64,000 nt of DNA from Promethearchaeota archaeon (lineage in GTDB: Archaea; Asgardarchaeota; Lokiarchaeia; Sigyniarchaeales; SOKP01), in assembly GCA_013375475.1 (NCBI GenBank), contig JABXKD010000006.1, positions 1 to 64,000 of the forward strand. Direction: 5' to 3'. Shown here piece after piece: positions 11,325 to 62,005 of the stretch. How positions within the stretch are numbered: the first letter of the stretch is position 1; the number at the start of each line of letters is the position of its first letter. Made by a program: the position numbers and the translations under genes. The notes under the pieces were generated by a model. The model had not been told where the DNA came from. It saw nothing but the letters and a program-made list of their open reading frames with translations, and did not search any database.

Positions 11325-11503
11325 CTTTAGTAACAGATTTCTTAATTCAGTTGCTATACACTTTATTTTATAGAAAGTAATAGACACAGCTTTATTTAAA
11401 TGAAAAATTTAGAACAAAATTGTTCTCGGAGATCTTACACTCGATTTTTTTTTATATATGCGTAACTATTCGCTATAATTATAAACATAAATAGCTCTAT
11501 ACC

Positions 11504-11722
11504 ATGAAAAAAAATCGTAATCTGGATTGGGGAAATTTTCGGCATCCTGAATTCCTCCAAACGCTTAATATCAGCGTGAATGAGCTAAAATTCATTAAGA
11601 TGTTTCTAAAGCGCGGGAGTGTAGAATTAGTCAATGAAATACTGCGAGAACGAAAATCTAAAAAACAAAACGTGCACAAGGATGACTTAACTAATAGGTA
11701 TTACAAGGTAGAAAAAATATAG
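11504..11722 (+). CDS. Small basic hypothetical protein
   Basis: 72 aa with TATA upstream. Confidence 0.5.
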   Translation: MKKNRNLDWGNFRHPEFLQTLNISVNELKFIKMFLKRGSVELVNEILRERKSKKQNVHKDDLTNRYYKVEKI

Positions 11723-11750
11723 GTGTAATTTTTATTTAAAATTCGATTAG

Positions 11751-12011
11751 TCATTCTAATTCTTCTACGAATTTGTAATCTACTGTGATAGTACTTTTAG
11801 TCTCAATTATTTCGCCAAGGATTAGGATTTTTTTGCCAATAAATTTATGTAGCACTGGATCGTTCTGCCACAACATAACTTGTTTCCTTACGAGAATTTT
11901 AGACCACCGATTAGCATAGTCGTCTAACGGTTGAATATAATATTTAGGTCCTTCGGATTTAGTTCCTTTTGCTACGGTTTCAGCAGAAAGTATCCCACTA
12001 ATTTCATCCAT
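11751..12011 (-). CDS. Small OB-like hypothetical protein
   Basis: 86 aa; GTKSEG...FIGKKILILGEI. Confidence 0.55.
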   Translation of the reverse strand: MDEISGILSAETVAKGTKSEGPKYYIQPLDDYANRWSKILVRKQVMLWQNDPVLHKFIGKKILILGEIIETKSTITVDYKFVEELE

Positions 12012-12067
12012 AGAGTATAGCCTTTAAAATACTAATATAAAAGAAGAAAAAATATCAGTTAATAAAT

Positions 12068-13756
12068 TTAATTAATTTGCTGTTTGATTTTTGGTTCAAA
12101 CCTTTGAGCGGATACTCCTATCCTCTGAACTTTTCGCTTTTGGCGGCTTTTTCTTCTCATTTCCATCGTGTAATCTATGACGTATTTCATTACACCTCCA
12201 ATGGTGAAACCAGCTTGACGATCGGCATCTTGTATTTGAACCATAAAATCTACGATTTTGTCGTCCGGAATTGGTCTATTAAAAATATAGGGAATCTCCA
12301 TTAGCTCCTCTTCTAGATTACGAATATCATGCTCATTTCCTTTCGCTTTGTATTGACACTTCCAAGACCACATAGCATTGTGCTTTTTTGATTTGTAATC
12401 GAACGATCCTGGAACAATATACATAGGAGCAGGACGGAATTGAACTGGGAGAGGATGTTCGATTCTTTCGTGGTCGAAATACGATCTTTGAGAGAAATGT
12501 TCTATAGTTTGAATAACACTCTCGCAATTATTTTTTTCAGTTTTGATGTCGCTAAAACCTACCACTAACATTGCTAGCACGTTAACTCCGGCTTGTGTTA
12601 AACTTTCTATAGTGTCCAAGTTCTGATTAACACTGGTTCCTTTGTTCATTTCTTTCAGATCGCTATCCGAAAAGGCTTCAAAACCTACCCAAGCGTCCTC
12701 AAATCCCGCCATTTTTGCTTTCCTAGCAAGATTTGGAGTTATATTTGCTCTAAAGTGAGTCCCAAACTTAATATCTAAATTCTTTTCGATGAGCTTATCG
12801 CATAATTCTTCGAAATATTCAAGATCGTCGTTAATTAGTGATTCTCCAAACAACATGAACCGTGGTTTAAACTTTCGCACAATAGTCTCCACATCTTGGA
12901 CCACTTTATTCACCGAACGAGTTCTAAAGCGTGGACCGAAAAGTTTCCATTCTGCGCAGAATTGGCAACGATTAGTACACCCGCGAGACCTGTAAGTCGA
13001 GGCAATTTGATAGTACGTATCTAACGGTATATCGGTGTAATCGGGTGTTGGCAATAAGTCTAAATCGAGCTGAATTCCGGGAGAATATTGGTAACCGTGT
13101 TGCTGATTCAAGCTCATCACACCTTTTATATCGTTTAAATCGACTCCTTTTGCAATTTCAAGCAATGGATATTCTCCTTCTCCAATTACTAACCCATCGC
13201 ATATTCCTTTCTTAAGAAACATCTTAAACGCTTCAGAAGATTGGGTGATAGATGGTCCCCCCCACACGATTGTGCACTCAGGGTTGGTCCGTTTTAACAG
13301 ACACGAGGAAATTATGGTTTCCGAAATGTTAAGATAGTTCAAAGAGAACGCGATTATTGAGTAATCTTGCAAATCCTCGAGAACGGTGTTCCTACAATAG
13401 TCTATAATACCCTCGAATCGTATTTTCGTCGCATTAGGCGGTTCGAACATTCTCGTTGAGTAATCTTTTATAATATCGACGTACATCCCCTCGCTAAATT
13501 TGGGATCTATATTGTTAGAAATATCGTTCGCGATGGGAACAATCATCGGAAAGTCCTGGTGGTTCATGATAAAGTTAGTTAAATCCAATTGGATGAGTGG
13601 GTCAAATATTACCTTAGGTAAAGTGTAATTGGTTGCTCTAAAGTTAAAAACTTGGACCGATTGAGCATGGAGCTTTAAGTACGCTTGTAAACACGCCAAA
13701 CCTAGCGGAATTAACCGATCGTTAATACACGATACTTTTACTAACGCTATTGTCAT
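12068..13756 (-). CDS. B12-binding radical SAM protein
   Basis: PLGLACL, IVWGGP, GEGE, SRGCTNRCQFC (CxxxCxxC). Confidence 0.9.
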   Translation of the reverse strand: MTIALVKVSCINDRLIPLGLACLQAYLKLHAQSVQVFNFRATNYTLPKVIFDPLIQLDLTNFIMNHQDFPMIVPIANDISNNIDPKFSEGMYVDIIKDYSTRMFEPPNATKIRFEGIIDYCRNTVLEDLQDYSIIAFSLNYLNISETIISSCLLKRTNPECTIVWGGPSITQSSEAFKMFLKKGICDGLVIGEGEYPLLEIAKGVDLNDIKGVMSLNQQHGYQYSPGIQLDLDLLPTPDYTDIPLDTYYQIASTYRSRGCTNRCQFCAEWKLFGPRFRTRSVNKVVQDVETIVRKFKPRFMLFGESLINDDLEYFEELCDKLIEKNLDIKFGTHFRANITPNLARKAKMAGFEDAWVGFEAFSDSDLKEMNKGTSVNQNLDTIESLTQAGVNVLAMLVVGFSDIKTEKNNCESVIQTIEHFSQRSYFDHERIEHPLPVQFRPAPMYIVPGSFDYKSKKHNAMWSWKCQYKAKGNEHDIRNLEEELMEIPYIFNRPIPDDKIVDFMVQIQDADRQAGFTIGGVMKYVIDYTMEMRRKSRQKRKVQRIGVSAQRFEPKIKQQIN

Positions 13757-13812
13757 AATATTTTTACATCTAACAGCTTATATTTTATGTTAAAGACGAA
13801 AATAATTTTCAA

Positions 13813-13827
13813 TATTTAAAGAAAAAA
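13813..13827 (-). promoter_or_regulatory. TTTTTC-TATA promoter (radical SAM gene)
   Basis: Minus strand TTTTTTCTTTAAATA ~57 bp before the start. Confidence 0.65.
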
Positions 13828-13874
13828 TTGTATGTCGAGAAAAATCAAATAGAAAAATAAAAAAGTAGTAGTAA

Positions 13875-60583: not shown

Positions 60584-60602
60584 CAGAGATTTGAAGCAGG
60601 AA

Positions 60603-60616
60603 TTTTTCTTTAAATA
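60603..60616 (+). promoter_or_regulatory. TTTTTC-TATA promoter (60683 gene)
   Basis: TTTTTCTTTAAATA. Confidence 0.65.
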
Positions 60617-60682
60617 AAGCGATTATTAGGAAGAAATATGTATACAATCTAGTTTAACAAATTCTATAACCCTGAGGAAAAC

Positions 60683-61300
60683 ATGGCTGGAACATCAAAT
60701 AATACTATTAGTCTGACAAAACAAATAGTCGAGAGAGGCGATAGTACTGAGCGTGGTTTAAATAAGAAAGAAATTATTAATCTCTTTTTCAGATGCGAGA
60801 GTCTAATTGACGATGACAATAAGATTAGAACACCAAACAGTTTAAATTTGGATAAGATTGCTGAAAAAGCAAGTTCGTCAAGAGGCGTCGTCCTGTATAT
60901 CCTCAACAGTTTTCTAAGAGAATTAAAAGTTTTTCACGATTTTTTAACTACTAGGTATGAGAACTGGGCACCAGGAAAGAGACATATTTACGAAAAACTA
61001 AACATTTACCTCGAAAAGCTATACGTAACAGCTCCTATTTTCAACTATCAACGGGCAAAAAAAAATATAGATGTTCTTCATTATCTTCTATCAAATAGCT
61101 ATTACTGGCCTCATATCACGACCCAACTTGCCTTATTAATTTTCGTGACAGATAGAAACGATCCGGATGTAAAAGAAAAAGCCTATATCTTGCAAAAAAA
61201 CTTGAGAATGCTCTGTACTTGTTCAGCTTACGCTTTTCATTGTGCTAGAAATAGGTTAAACATTTCTAAAGAGGGGAAACTCAACAAATCTGCCCAGTAA
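60683..61300 (+). CDS. Hypothetical protein, possible HTH plus cyclin-like fold
   Basis: LDKIAEKASSSRGVV; TTQLALLIFV...ILQKNLRMLCTCS. Confidence 0.55.
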   Translation: MAGTSNNTISLTKQIVERGDSTERGLNKKEIINLFFRCESLIDDDNKIRTPNSLNLDKIAEKASSSRGVVLYILNSFLRELKVFHDFLTTRYENWAPGKRHIYEKLNIYLEKLYVTAPIFNYQRAKKNIDVLHYLLSNSYYWPHITTQLALLIFVTDRNDPDVKEKAYILQKNLRMLCTCSAYAFHCARNRLNISKEGKLNKSAQ

Positions 61301-61388
61301 AACAATAATGTTCTCCTTTTATAATTATAAAATACAAACAATAAATACTGTCCAAATTTACTTATACTAAAGTTGGATTGCGATTAAC

Positions 61389-61964
61389 ATGGATATTAAT
61401 GAAGTTAAAAAGCGTTTAGGATCTGAGTTTGGGTATACTTTTGAAAATACTAAACCGATCCTCCAAGAATTAGGGCTAGATAAAAATGCAAAACTCTTAG
61501 ATGTGGGAACGGGTATGGGTAAAATGGCGATAACGCTTGCTTTACACGGATATAAAGTACTTACAGGAGAACTAGAAAGTGACGAATCCGAGTATGCAAA
61601 ACAAAATTGGTTGGAATCTGCTAAAAAAGTAGGCGTTGATCATCTAATCACCTACAAACCGTTTAACGCTGAAAAAATGCCTTTTGAGGATGAGTTGTTC
61701 GATGCTATTTTCATATCGGGAGCGTTACATCACATTAACGATAGACAGGCAACTTTTAATGAAAGCGTTCGTGTACTTAAATCGAATGGAGTAATCTGCA
61801 TCTTTGAGCCAAAACCTCGATCTGTTACCTATATACGCGCGAATAAATTTCCAGACCATCCAGATGCCGAGGATCCAAGGGTTTACAATAAGGAATTACA
61901 ATTACCCGTAGAGATTAAAGAAACTTCTTTTCACGATGTGTATATCTTTCATAAAAAAACATAA
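61389..61964 (+). CDS. Class I SAM-dependent methyltransferase
   Basis: LLDVGTGMG, AEKMPFEDELFD, RVLKSNG. Confidence 0.9.
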   Translation: MDINEVKKRLGSEFGYTFENTKPILQELGLDKNAKLLDVGTGMGKMAITLALHGYKVLTGELESDESEYAKQNWLESAKKVGVDHLITYKPFNAEKMPFEDELFDAIFISGALHHINDRQATFNESVRVLKSNGVICIFEPKPRSVTYIRANKFPDHPDAEDPRVYNKELQLPVEIKETSFHDVYIFHKKT

Positions 61965-61990
61965 TTTTAATTTAAATTTCTCATCTTAAG

Positions 61991-62005
61991 TTTTTTCTTT
62001 AAATA
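61991..62005 (+). promoter_or_regulatory. TTTTTC-TATA promoter (rpa)
   Basis: TTTTTTCTTTAAATA. Confidence 0.65.

Follow-up and report, generated by a model that had tools for sequence, protein, structure and literature searches.

A pyrimidine-rich promoter class marks a conserved ~58-kb island that carries its own TFIIB-family homolog in a member of the Lokiarchaeia

The window analyzed here is the first 64 kb of contig C255 (77.3 kb; JABXKD010000006.1), part of a 3.92-Mb assembly in 288 contigs (GCA_013375475.1; 32.5% G+C) from a Promethearchaeota archaeon of the Lokiarchaeia, and our subject is a recurrent motif in which a T-run ending in C abuts a TATA-like box upstream of many of its genes. 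A chromosomal flank occupies 1-10.9 kb, and from a left edge between positions 10,969 and 10,980 the sequence belongs to a ~58-kb island that is conserved in related genomes. The island encodes a 1261-aa protein with a HerA/VirB4/TrwB-fold domain, a RadA paralog, a Hel308-like helicase, a DEAD helicase, an XPG/FEN1 paralog, an OB-fold RPA-like protein, a KaiC/RecA-like NTPase, a ThiF-like protein, a radical-SAM protein and a divergent homolog of the archaeal initiation factor TFB. A first-pass annotation had read the motif as a non-canonical promoter class that defines a regulon of about 20 genes interspersed with metabolic genes. That reading was right in kind but incomplete: a second promoter class does mark a programme, but the programme-like set amounts to a single uninterrupted conserved island that has a TFIIB-family factor of its own, and the supposed metabolic genes proved to be either chromosomal flank or cargo specific to this copy.

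A T-run, a C (a G at 34116) and a TATA-like box were found in the predicted orientation at all 22 coordinates that the first-pass annotation had listed. When sites were scored in bits with a 15-column matrix learned by de novo expectation-maximization (EM) from the upstream regions of C255, 21 of these 22 reached at least 13 bits, the exception at 58042 being the weaker variant TTTAAGTC, and further sites were located at 34147(+), 38344(+) and 41950(-) in the window and at 66413(+) and 68856(+) beyond it. With at most one mismatch allowed, TTTTTCTTTAAATA occurred 13 times in the window against 0.94 expected from 100 dinucleotide-preserving shuffles, none of which contained more than 4. Twenty of the 27 sites on the contig with at least 14.5 bits were intergenic, with a gene in the right orientation starting no more than 150 nt downstream; another 6 were intergenic with a different placement and 1 fell within an open reading frame (ORF); several sites stood back to back in divergent gaps (Table 1). 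The sites are indeed upstream of genes, but the gap between the last TATA-box base and the start codon as called ranged from 5 to 146 nt rather than over the 15-90 bp first proposed, with peaks at 21-22 nt and 27-28 nt that suggest leaderless mRNAs and very short leaders, respectively. At 10980-11387 the called GTG start is only 5 nt from the motif, so that the true start probably lies further in.

Compared with the rest of the genome, the motif was concentrated on this contig, which holds 2% of the bases, 9 of the 13 copies of the exact 14-mer and 28 of the 251 matches to the core pattern. A strict pattern stood in sense orientation upstream of 22 of the 2489 genes with an upstream gap of at least 50 nt, and in antisense orientation at 13. 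De novo EM recovered the motif in ~71% of 64 upstream regions on C255, whereas EM on 600 regions sampled from the 2518 elsewhere, which are A-rich, returned an unrelated weak motif. Off the contig, 128 sites scored at least 14.5 bits, of which 62 lay inside genes, 40 were intergenic with other placement and 26 were correctly placed, so that well-placed sites made up 26/128 there as against 20/27 on C255. Unselected sites anchored on the TATA box told the same: on C255, T accounted for 56-76% at positions -6 to -2 and C for 48% at -1, and elsewhere the corresponding values were 28-41% and 12%, with no T-run and no C. Because the motif is rare and mostly misplaced off C255 and because EM and TATA-anchored profiles differ elsewhere, we rejected the idea that it is the organism's general promoter. 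We likewise rejected a regulon scattered in trans, since the ten best motif-bearing genes off C255 share no function (an MFS protein, an eRF1-like protein, a flavin reductase and proteins of unknown function) and sites there showed no orientation preference, 26 being correct and 40 intergenic with other placement.

Conservation and a second sequence signal point to core promoters. For the 20 motif-bearing island genes with at least one related copy, the motif was kept at 13 bits or more in 54 of 59 ortholog upstream regions, with a median shift of 2 nt relative to the start codon, and it occurred in none of the 42 copies of 15 motif-less island genes, which are mostly inner operon genes; upstream conservation, proposed earlier as a check, was thus borne out. 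The operon behind the site at 31829 illustrates the pattern, its leading motif being kept in 4/4 copies and its inner genes having none. Outside the columns used for picking sites, a pyrimidine-purine (YR) step 22-23 nt after the last TATA base was present at 65% of 105 island sites (own and related copies), compared with 20% of 163 equally scoring matches elsewhere and ~20% at neighbouring offsets. The initiator position was A in 73% of island sites against 34% elsewhere, and in 71% after 16 start-codon sites had been dropped. A TATA-to-initiator spacing of 22-23 nt is that expected for an archaeal initiator, and the fixed YR step argues, at the level of sequence, that the sites are core promoters at which transcription begins at a set position; gaps of 21-22 nt to the start codon would then recur because the initiator spacing coincides with the start of leaderless genes.

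The canonical archaeal core promoter consists of a purine-rich B recognition element (BRE), a TATA box and an initiator, and is read by TBP and TFB. The island sites resemble it in their TTTAWATA box, in having an element directly 5' of the box, in a YR step ~25 nt from the box centre and in leaderless-compatible spacing, so that the TATA box and YR initiator of a TBP/TFB core promoter are present at the sequence level; they differ in that positions -7 to -1 are not purine-rich but T-rich, a pyrimidine run ending in C at -1, and in that the element is confined to one island. Purine-rich elements do precede the TATA box at several host TFB and TBP genes, at flank genes and at cargo genes, and the four purine-rich examples quoted in the first-pass annotation were exactly present, at 593(+), 8946(-), 53160(-) and 52175(-). 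Together with enrichment, placement, initiator and ortholog conservation, these host-type promoters uphold the proposed division into two promoter classes, the pyrimidine class being real and conserved. We rejected the alternative that the T-runs are terminators of upstream genes, as the first-pass annotation had argued from the back-to-back sites in divergent gaps, since the T-runs also keep a fixed register and are conserved across copies. RNA was represented by two metatranscriptome runs of one study, in the form of assembled contigs holding 5-7% of the words; contigs lay over the RadA-like gene and its 5' region, one of them covering 53372-53525, and most promoters had no cover.

Table 1. 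Motif sites, genes and other features of the window (copies are related copies of the island; negative offsets are positions relative to the start codon)
Feature	Start	End	Strand	Remarks
Conserved island, window part	10980	64000		runs on to ~69,318 on C255; total ~58 kb
Motif promoter, 13.4 bits	11393	11408	-	precedes 10980-11387
Motif promoter, 17.5 bits	13813	13828	-	precedes radical-SAM/B12-domain gene 12068-13756; kept in 3/3 copies
Motif promoter, 17.5 bits	15078	15093	-	precedes 13875-15032
Motif promoter, 17.3 bits	23028	23043	-	precedes 21802-22971; kept in 3/3 copies
Motif promoter, 13.0 bits	24968	24983	-	precedes 23681-24916 and 23064-23636; divergent with 25005 site
Motif promoter, 15.4 bits	25005	25020	+	precedes ThiF/E1-like gene 25079-25948
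1261-aa protein, HerA/VirB4/TrwB-fold domain	26385	30170	-	two hydrophobic N-terminal segments
Motif promoter, 17.5 bits	31829	31844	-	operon 31029-31778, 30178-31032, 26385-30170, 26024-26395
Motif promoter, G variant, 15.6 bits	34116	34131	-	precedes HhH membrane protein gene 32216-34087; at -29/-30 in 3/3 copies
Second, upstream motif copy, 13.9 bits	34147	34162	+	194 nt ahead of 34357
Motif promoter, 17.2 bits	34289	34304	+	precedes Hel308-like helicase gene 34357-36876
Motif promoter, 13.6 bits	37383	37398	+	precedes 37446-37730 (94 aa, highly charged); kept in 5/5 copies
Motif promoter without C, 14.0 bits	38344	38359	+	precedes 38387-38641; kept in 4/4 copies
Motif promoter, 16.2 bits	41949	41964	-	41351-41926, DEAD helicase 39170-41335, DUF1922 gene 38638-39177; at -23 in 5/5 copies
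Motif promoter, 14.8 bits	46969	46984	-	precedes 980-aa surface-type protein gene 43973-46915
Divergent TFB/TFIIB homolog, 424 aa	47053	48327	-	zinc ribbon, two cyclin-like repeats, C-terminal extension of ~130 aa
Long intergenic region, candidate input/regulatory region	48328	48906		conserved blocks in alignment of 4 copies
Motif promoter, 14.5 bits	48907	48922	+	48950-49717, 49718-50068, 50072-50791; at -28 in 4/4 copies
Motif promoter, 16.1 bits	50858	50873	+	precedes 50895-51272
Motif promoter, 17.4 bits	53291	53306	+	146 nt ahead of RadA-like gene; like arrangement in G008:C20
RadA/Rad51 paralog, two ORFs 53453-54214 and 54207-54614	53453	54614	+	Pfam Rad51 2.7e-59, HHH_5
Candidate bulge-helix-bulge intron, 31 nt	54146	54176	+	within RadA-like mRNA
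HNH/homing-endonuclease-like gene	54717	55988	+	PHROG 559 at 1.2e-39; no tblastn match in related copies
Motif promoter, 16.7 bits	57855	57870	-	57489-57806 and 56456-57526
Weak variant TTTAAGTC, <13 bits	58042	58055	+	precedes 58131-58475
Motif promoter, 14.3 bits	58492	58507	+	precedes small membrane protein gene 58521-58757
Motif promoter, 14.7 bits	59219	59234	-	precedes small membrane protein gene 58791-59186; back to back with 59247 site
Motif promoter, 15.7 bits	59247	59262	+	precedes 37-aa hydrophobic ORF 59317-59430
Motif promoter, 16.0 bits	59452	59467	+	21 nt ahead of XPG/FEN1-like gene 59489-60583, leaderless-type spacing; at -22 in 3/3 copies
Motif promoter, 15.5 bits	60601	60616	+	precedes 60683-61300
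Motif promoter, 16.4 bits	61990	62005	+	precedes OB-fold/RPA-like gene 62041-62985
CoiA-like nuclease-domain gene	62993	63817	-	Pfam CoiA_nuc at 6.9e-11

As judged by profile comparison, the product of ORF 47053-48327 is a divergent member of the TFB/TFIIB family. Pfam searches at E ≤ 0.001 returned no family for it, the TFIIB model included, where the host TFBs score 53-91 bits. Aligned with its G008 counterparts, it displayed a zinc ribbon and, after it, helical repeats. Alignment of TFB-like sequences against seven full-length host TFBs with hhalign gave Prob 96.5, and nine TFB-like sequences from several genera gave Prob 98.7 (E 1.9e-16) over 258 columns that run from the ribbon through both cyclin repeats. 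Searched against PDB profiles, the 9-sequence alignment retrieved human TFIIB (3.8e-6) and Pyrococcus woesei TFB (1e-4), and a 3-sequence TFB-like alignment retrieved zinc ribbons only; the top 28 Foldseek matches listed for a structure model were, by entry title, TFIIB, archaeal TFB and Pol III initiation-complex chains. The CxxC...CxxC zinc ribbon (C24, C27, C41, C44) is invariant in the nine sequences and aligned with the host TFB ribbon. At the end of the second cyclin repeat, host TFBs read ...GVTEVTLRSR... and the island protein ...G(I/V)(K/R)MSTI(H/Q)xQ..., with M, S, T and Q invariant; we take this host segment to be the BRE-recognition helix-turn-helix of solved TFB-DNA complexes. Prediction of a complex between host TBP and the TFB-like core scored 0.00 in a run without controls and speaks neither for nor against binding. 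The divergent TFB provides a concrete candidate for the reader of the pyrimidine element. Elsewhere the genome encodes ~9 TFB paralogs, TBP and a second TBP-like gene (contig C272), and its proteins include no sigma-70. An unusual TFB relative was also seen at C279:664-1755, a 363-aa protein that combines three zinc ribbons of topoisomerase type with one TFIIB repeat.

The TFB-like gene itself had no motif upstream, either on C255 or in related copies, and none was found upstream of the host TFB and TBP genes. The 620-nt region upstream of the TFB-like gene carries conserved blocks; other genera show a purine-rich element, a TATA box and a conserved AAACTCCTTCC box ahead of the gene, and the last of these may be an operator. 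Of 100 other genomes of the family, 71 had a TFB-like protein, its gene mostly lying on the same contig as the gene for the HerA/VirB4-fold protein (hereafter the ATPase gene) and 10-25 kb away from it. When clustering in other genera was assessed from degenerate 14-mer matches within 30 kb of TFB-like loci, 19 of 54 matches in genome G072 fell there (~2.8 expected); near TFB-like or ATPase loci we counted 18 of the 35 matches listed for G077 (~2.9 expected) and 4 of 28 in G055 (~0.9 expected).

Between ~11 and 69.3 kb, C255 was colinear with three loci of the related genome G008 (G008:C12, C49 and C20) at 40-94% amino-acid identity, more distant colinear versions were found in G018 and G013, and exact motif matches were also clustered in genomes of the same genus. 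The G008:C12 copy in addition had homologs of 10,954-11,719. Flank genes 4382-10969 were found only beside the syntenic copy G008:C20, with left-flank identities of 59-86%, and right-flank genes recurred in G082:C120 at 36-78%, adjoining island genes; these shared flanks place the island at one chromosomal position in at least three species of the genus. Pfam, PHROG and PADLOC scans of the submitted ORFs revealed no integrase, capsid, terminase or replication initiator, the PHROGs and PADLOC matches being generic (helicase, E1, HNH) and giving no virus or defence identity. Direct repeats at the edges did not exceed 14 nt, the longest measuring 13-14 nt, and the tetranucleotide make-up of the island was mildly unusual (z = 2.06 on the second principal component; distance rank 42/107). 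Because the contig was only a mild outlier in the tetranucleotide principal component analysis, and flanks and island occur in other genomes of the genus, we rejected the possibility that it is mis-binned.

Certain stretches of the island are specific to this copy. The segment 13875-21654, whose genes are PP-loop-like, Ras-family GTPase, GT2, PIG-L deacetylase, BshC-like, amidohydrolase and URO-D-like, had no counterpart in the three G008 copies and one distant Ras-family match in G018; the motif stands before its first gene only, and a homolog of that gene lies in the island of G079. Further cargo comprised an 11-transmembrane gene at 41976, a cupin gene with a counterpart only in G008:C20, and the HNH gene, whose product contains 20 cysteines and which is preceded by a plain T-run, not the full motif. 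Strong matches to the motif off the island were seen at C9:1685, C258:4363, C222:67329 and C233:32180. The first three of these matches lie beside genes resembling those that flank the G008:C12 copy, the fourth beside a paralog of 23681-24916, and all four may be satellite members of the island programme.

The 1261-aa protein 26385-30170 matched no sequence family in Pfam, PHROG or PADLOC, and a PDB profile search with the ATPase alignment was empty. An AlphaFold2 model of its C-terminal 701 aa (predicted local distance difference test, pLDDT, 79.4) was placed by Foldseek with HerA (9.8e-10), VirB4 (TMt 0.66) and TrwB, and ESM-Atlas features agreed. The protein occurred in 75 of 101 other family genomes, at 1 to 4 places in each, with identities of 35-84% even within the genus. 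Many membrane proteins, both small and polytopic, are encoded around its gene, including the helix-hairpin-helix (HhH) protein with membrane segments (32216-34087), for which the ESM Atlas held no usable match. The 37-aa hydrophobic ORF 59317-59430 is served by a separate motif promoter (59247) and shows a Shine-Dalgarno-like AAGGAGGAA, and three further small membrane proteins are encoded nearby at 58131-59186; the small membrane proteins of 58131-59430 could possibly be pilin-like subunits. Elsewhere in the genome, the host possesses RadA-like and FEN1-like genes distinct from those of the island. Gene content suggests that the island functions in DNA transfer coupled to recombination.

The motif and its conservation, its confinement to the island, the signal at the initiator and the homology of the island protein to TFB lead us to propose that ~25 transcription units of a single conserved ~58-kb island have the motif as their core promoter, and that the island's own TFB reads the pyrimidine element and thereby switches the island on, an account that we consider probable. 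In the proposed anatomy, the T-run ending in C would fill the 7 positions 5' of the TATA box, the usual place of the purine-rich BRE, and would be followed by a TTTAWATA box and then by a pyrimidine-purine initiator 22-23 nt after the box. Under some signal, host TBP, a host TFB and RNA polymerase would transcribe the island TFB gene, whose product would bind the T-run/C element and the TATA box together with TBP; transcription would then start 22-23 nt downstream at the ~25 promoters, and the island genes would be co-induced as one programme. A bolder extension, to which we give little credence, would make the island a fixed-locus, fast-diverging ~58-kb cassette for conjugation-like DNA exchange and recombination, run as a closed circuit by its own TFIIB homolog reading an "anti-BRE", with mating-type-like or self/non-self diversification behind the 35-84% identity within the genus and with the mRNA of the RadA paralog spliced by the tRNA splicing endonuclease.

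Several observations weigh against control by the island TFB or reduce the force of its support. Pfam does not recognize the TFB-like protein, whose structure model is of low quality (mean pLDDT 49.5). In G100, a closed genome, ~750 kb separate the TFB-like gene from the motif cluster around the ATPase gene, 1/33 motif matches being near the former and 6/33 near the latter, so that adjacency of the TFB-like gene to the motif cluster is not a rule. Five genomes have no detectable island-type TFB, and two of them, G079 and G082, still have motif clusters, a gap that most likely reflects fragmentation, with contigs ending inside the island beside the expected place of the gene. Island copies are kin, so that neither the 105 sites nor the 59 ortholog pairs count as independent; start-codon distances are approximate because the 3570 genes were called with a simple codon-usage caller; and at the possible Walker A (GxxxxGK[ST]) of 26385-30170 the consensus ...FDFTGNWSK... 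has no second glycine and no invariant lysine, so that this region looks degenerate and the protein may be a degenerate ATPase. The promoter class could be as proposed and the T-run/C be read by another factor than the island TFB, which we regard as rather unlikely: the element might be an operator of an island or host regulator, such as the small charged proteins 37446-37730, 38387-38641 and 41351-41926 or the DUF1922 zinc-ribbon protein, it might act through DNA shape as a rigid T-tract beside the TATA box with a host TFB, or a host TFB paralog or the C272 TBP-like protein might be the partner. The host's TFB paralogs and second TBP-like gene show that altered-specificity host factors exist, several conserved small island proteins are of unknown function, the G100 arrangement fits such a reader, and the BREs of Sulfolobus TFB1 and TFB2 promoters are described as similar in a preprint (bioRxiv 10.64898/2026.09.06.749720), so that TFB paralogs need not have new BREs. 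Set against this, every site has the element directly adjoining its TATA box in one fixed register, which is how a BRE is placed; no initiation-factor homolog other than the island TFB was found in the island, this TFB co-occurs with the island across genera, its aligned C-terminal helix is both changed and invariant (MST..Q), and the host TFB and TBP genes show neither linkage to the island nor the motif.

The island might instead be a mobile element that has integrated, whether conjugative or proviral, with its own promoter type and initiation factor and no cellular programme, and this we hold to be possible, if on the doubtful side. Its 1 to 4 copies per genome (three loci in G008, 2-4 matches in several genomes), its divergence (island proteins at 40-94% against 75-86% for the flanks of G008:C20, the ATPase at 35-84% within one genus), its copy-specific cargo with a homing-endonuclease gene, the VirB4/TrwB-like fold with membrane segments, and the paralogs of host RadA, FEN1 and helicases are all features that such an element would have. 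The scanned ORFs, however, contained no integrase, capsid, terminase or replication initiator, the edges lack direct repeats above 14 nt, the same flank genes occur in three species of the genus, roughly three in four of the family genomes searched contain the island, and its tetranucleotide make-up departs only mildly from that of the genome. We think it highly improbable that the pattern is an ordinary one, whether a general AT-rich promoter, terminator T-runs beside TATA boxes or a mis-binned contig. T-runs are common in a genome of this base composition (4869 TTTTTTC matches genome-wide), the matrix also catches pure T-runs in the chromosomal flank (582, 6888, 7104), and the assembly, at 100% estimated completeness, has 6.4% estimated contamination; but off the contig the motif is rare and mostly misplaced and TATA profiles show neither T-run nor C, sites stand back to back, register, C and initiator are conserved across copies with different flanks, and the contig flanks as well as the island recur in other genomes of the genus.

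Control of the island by its own TFB would belong to a known kind, the regulons of TFB paralogs or of initiation factors encoded by elements. Sulfolobus TFB3 takes part in the response to DNA damage, together with Ups/Ced DNA exchange, and haloarchaea possess families of TFB and TBP. With these paralogs and Sulfolobus TFB2 the island protein shares the theme of an initiation-factor paralog dedicated to a gene set, and the analogy with TFB3 extends to DNA-exchange and repair content; it differs from them in being missed by Pfam, in its ~130-aa C-terminal extension and in being encoded inside the gene set that it would control. Phages encode sigma factors, and haloarchaeal plasmids carry tfb and tbp genes. 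Like phages, plasmids and integrative and conjugative elements with initiation factors, the island is a self-contained gene block with its own factor and promoter type, fed by a host-type promoter; unlike them, it has no mobility genes or att sites that we could find, and its chromosomal position is conserved in three species. Ced and Ted are conjugation-like DNA transfer systems of archaea. The island resembles them, and type IV secretion systems with VirB4/TrwB, in having a membrane-anchored HerA/VirB4/TrwB-fold protein beside small and polytopic membrane proteins, and differs in that this protein has no sequence-level family match and a Walker A that looks degenerate, and that no pilin or channel homolog was identified. 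The nearest experimental parallel that we found is Sulfolobus TFB2, which according to the preprint cited above (bioRxiv 10.64898/2026.09.06.749720) drives cell-cycle genes from promoters whose BREs are similar to those of TFB1 promoters and whose spacing is different; the island promoters, by contrast, differ in sequence at the BRE position, and a paralog with a compositionally inverted element would go further than TFB2.

In a literature search of partial coverage we found no description of such a promoter class, of promoter motifs in Asgard archaea more generally, of an island-encoded TFB or of a bulge-helix-bulge intron in a protein gene in Asgard archaea; the accessible part of a 2026 review (PMC12993045) contained nothing specific on Asgard promoters, and in a 2026 preprint on Asgard tRNA introns protein-coding genes appear only as neighbours. 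How TFIIB-family factors gain promoter specificities, and how programmes are partitioned without sigma factors, are open questions in archaea, and they matter all the more in the lineage nearest to eukaryotes, in which TFIIB, Brf and Rrn7 diverged for different polymerases. The locus offers a natural pair, a divergent TFB with an invariant altered helix and ~25 promoters with an inverted element, with host-type promoters beside them as controls. The conserved, unannotated island may in addition encode DNA transfer and recombination in Asgard archaea, and it contains a candidate spliced mRNA.

That candidate lies in the gene for the RadA paralog, which is split into two ORFs. One 402-nt metatranscriptome contig from one run, matching with 0-1 mismatches, skips exactly positions 54146-54176; without this 31-nt stretch the two ORFs become one and GGNIVAH is restored. 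In G008:C20, a copy with no such 31 nt, the gene is a single open frame reading GGNIVAH, and G008:C12 and C49 have different 31-mers at the corresponding place. In the alignment of the three sequences, a 4-bp helix (columns 19-22 with 50-53) stands between two 3-nt bulges (columns 23-25 and 54-56), and cutting each bulge behind its second nucleotide yields the junction seen in the RNA. Over this helix and the inner helix 27/27 cells are paired, with 2 compensatory pairs, compared with 33-56% when the pairing was slid. We regard 54146-54176 as a candidate bulge-helix-bulge mRNA intron, a lead drawn from one contig and three sequences for which a DNA-level variant is also possible. Protein-gene introns of this type are known from cbf5 of Crenarchaeota, as described in PMC2738675; the present case shares with them a short mRNA intron, two 3-nt bulges, a 4-bp helix and a restored frame, and differs in its gene (a RadA paralog), its lineage (Lokiarchaeia), its weak outer exon-exon helix and its RNA support from one contig.

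Two minor observations concern the rest of the assembly. ARAGORN called only 22 tRNA genes, a count from which intron-rich tRNA genes may be missing. At C263:3809-3957, tRNA-Ile and tRNA-Ala follow directly after sequence resembling a 16S rRNA 3' end; a 16S/tRNA-Ile/tRNA-Ala spacer arrangement is typical of bacteria, and contig C263, the strongest tetranucleotide outlier, may be contamination.

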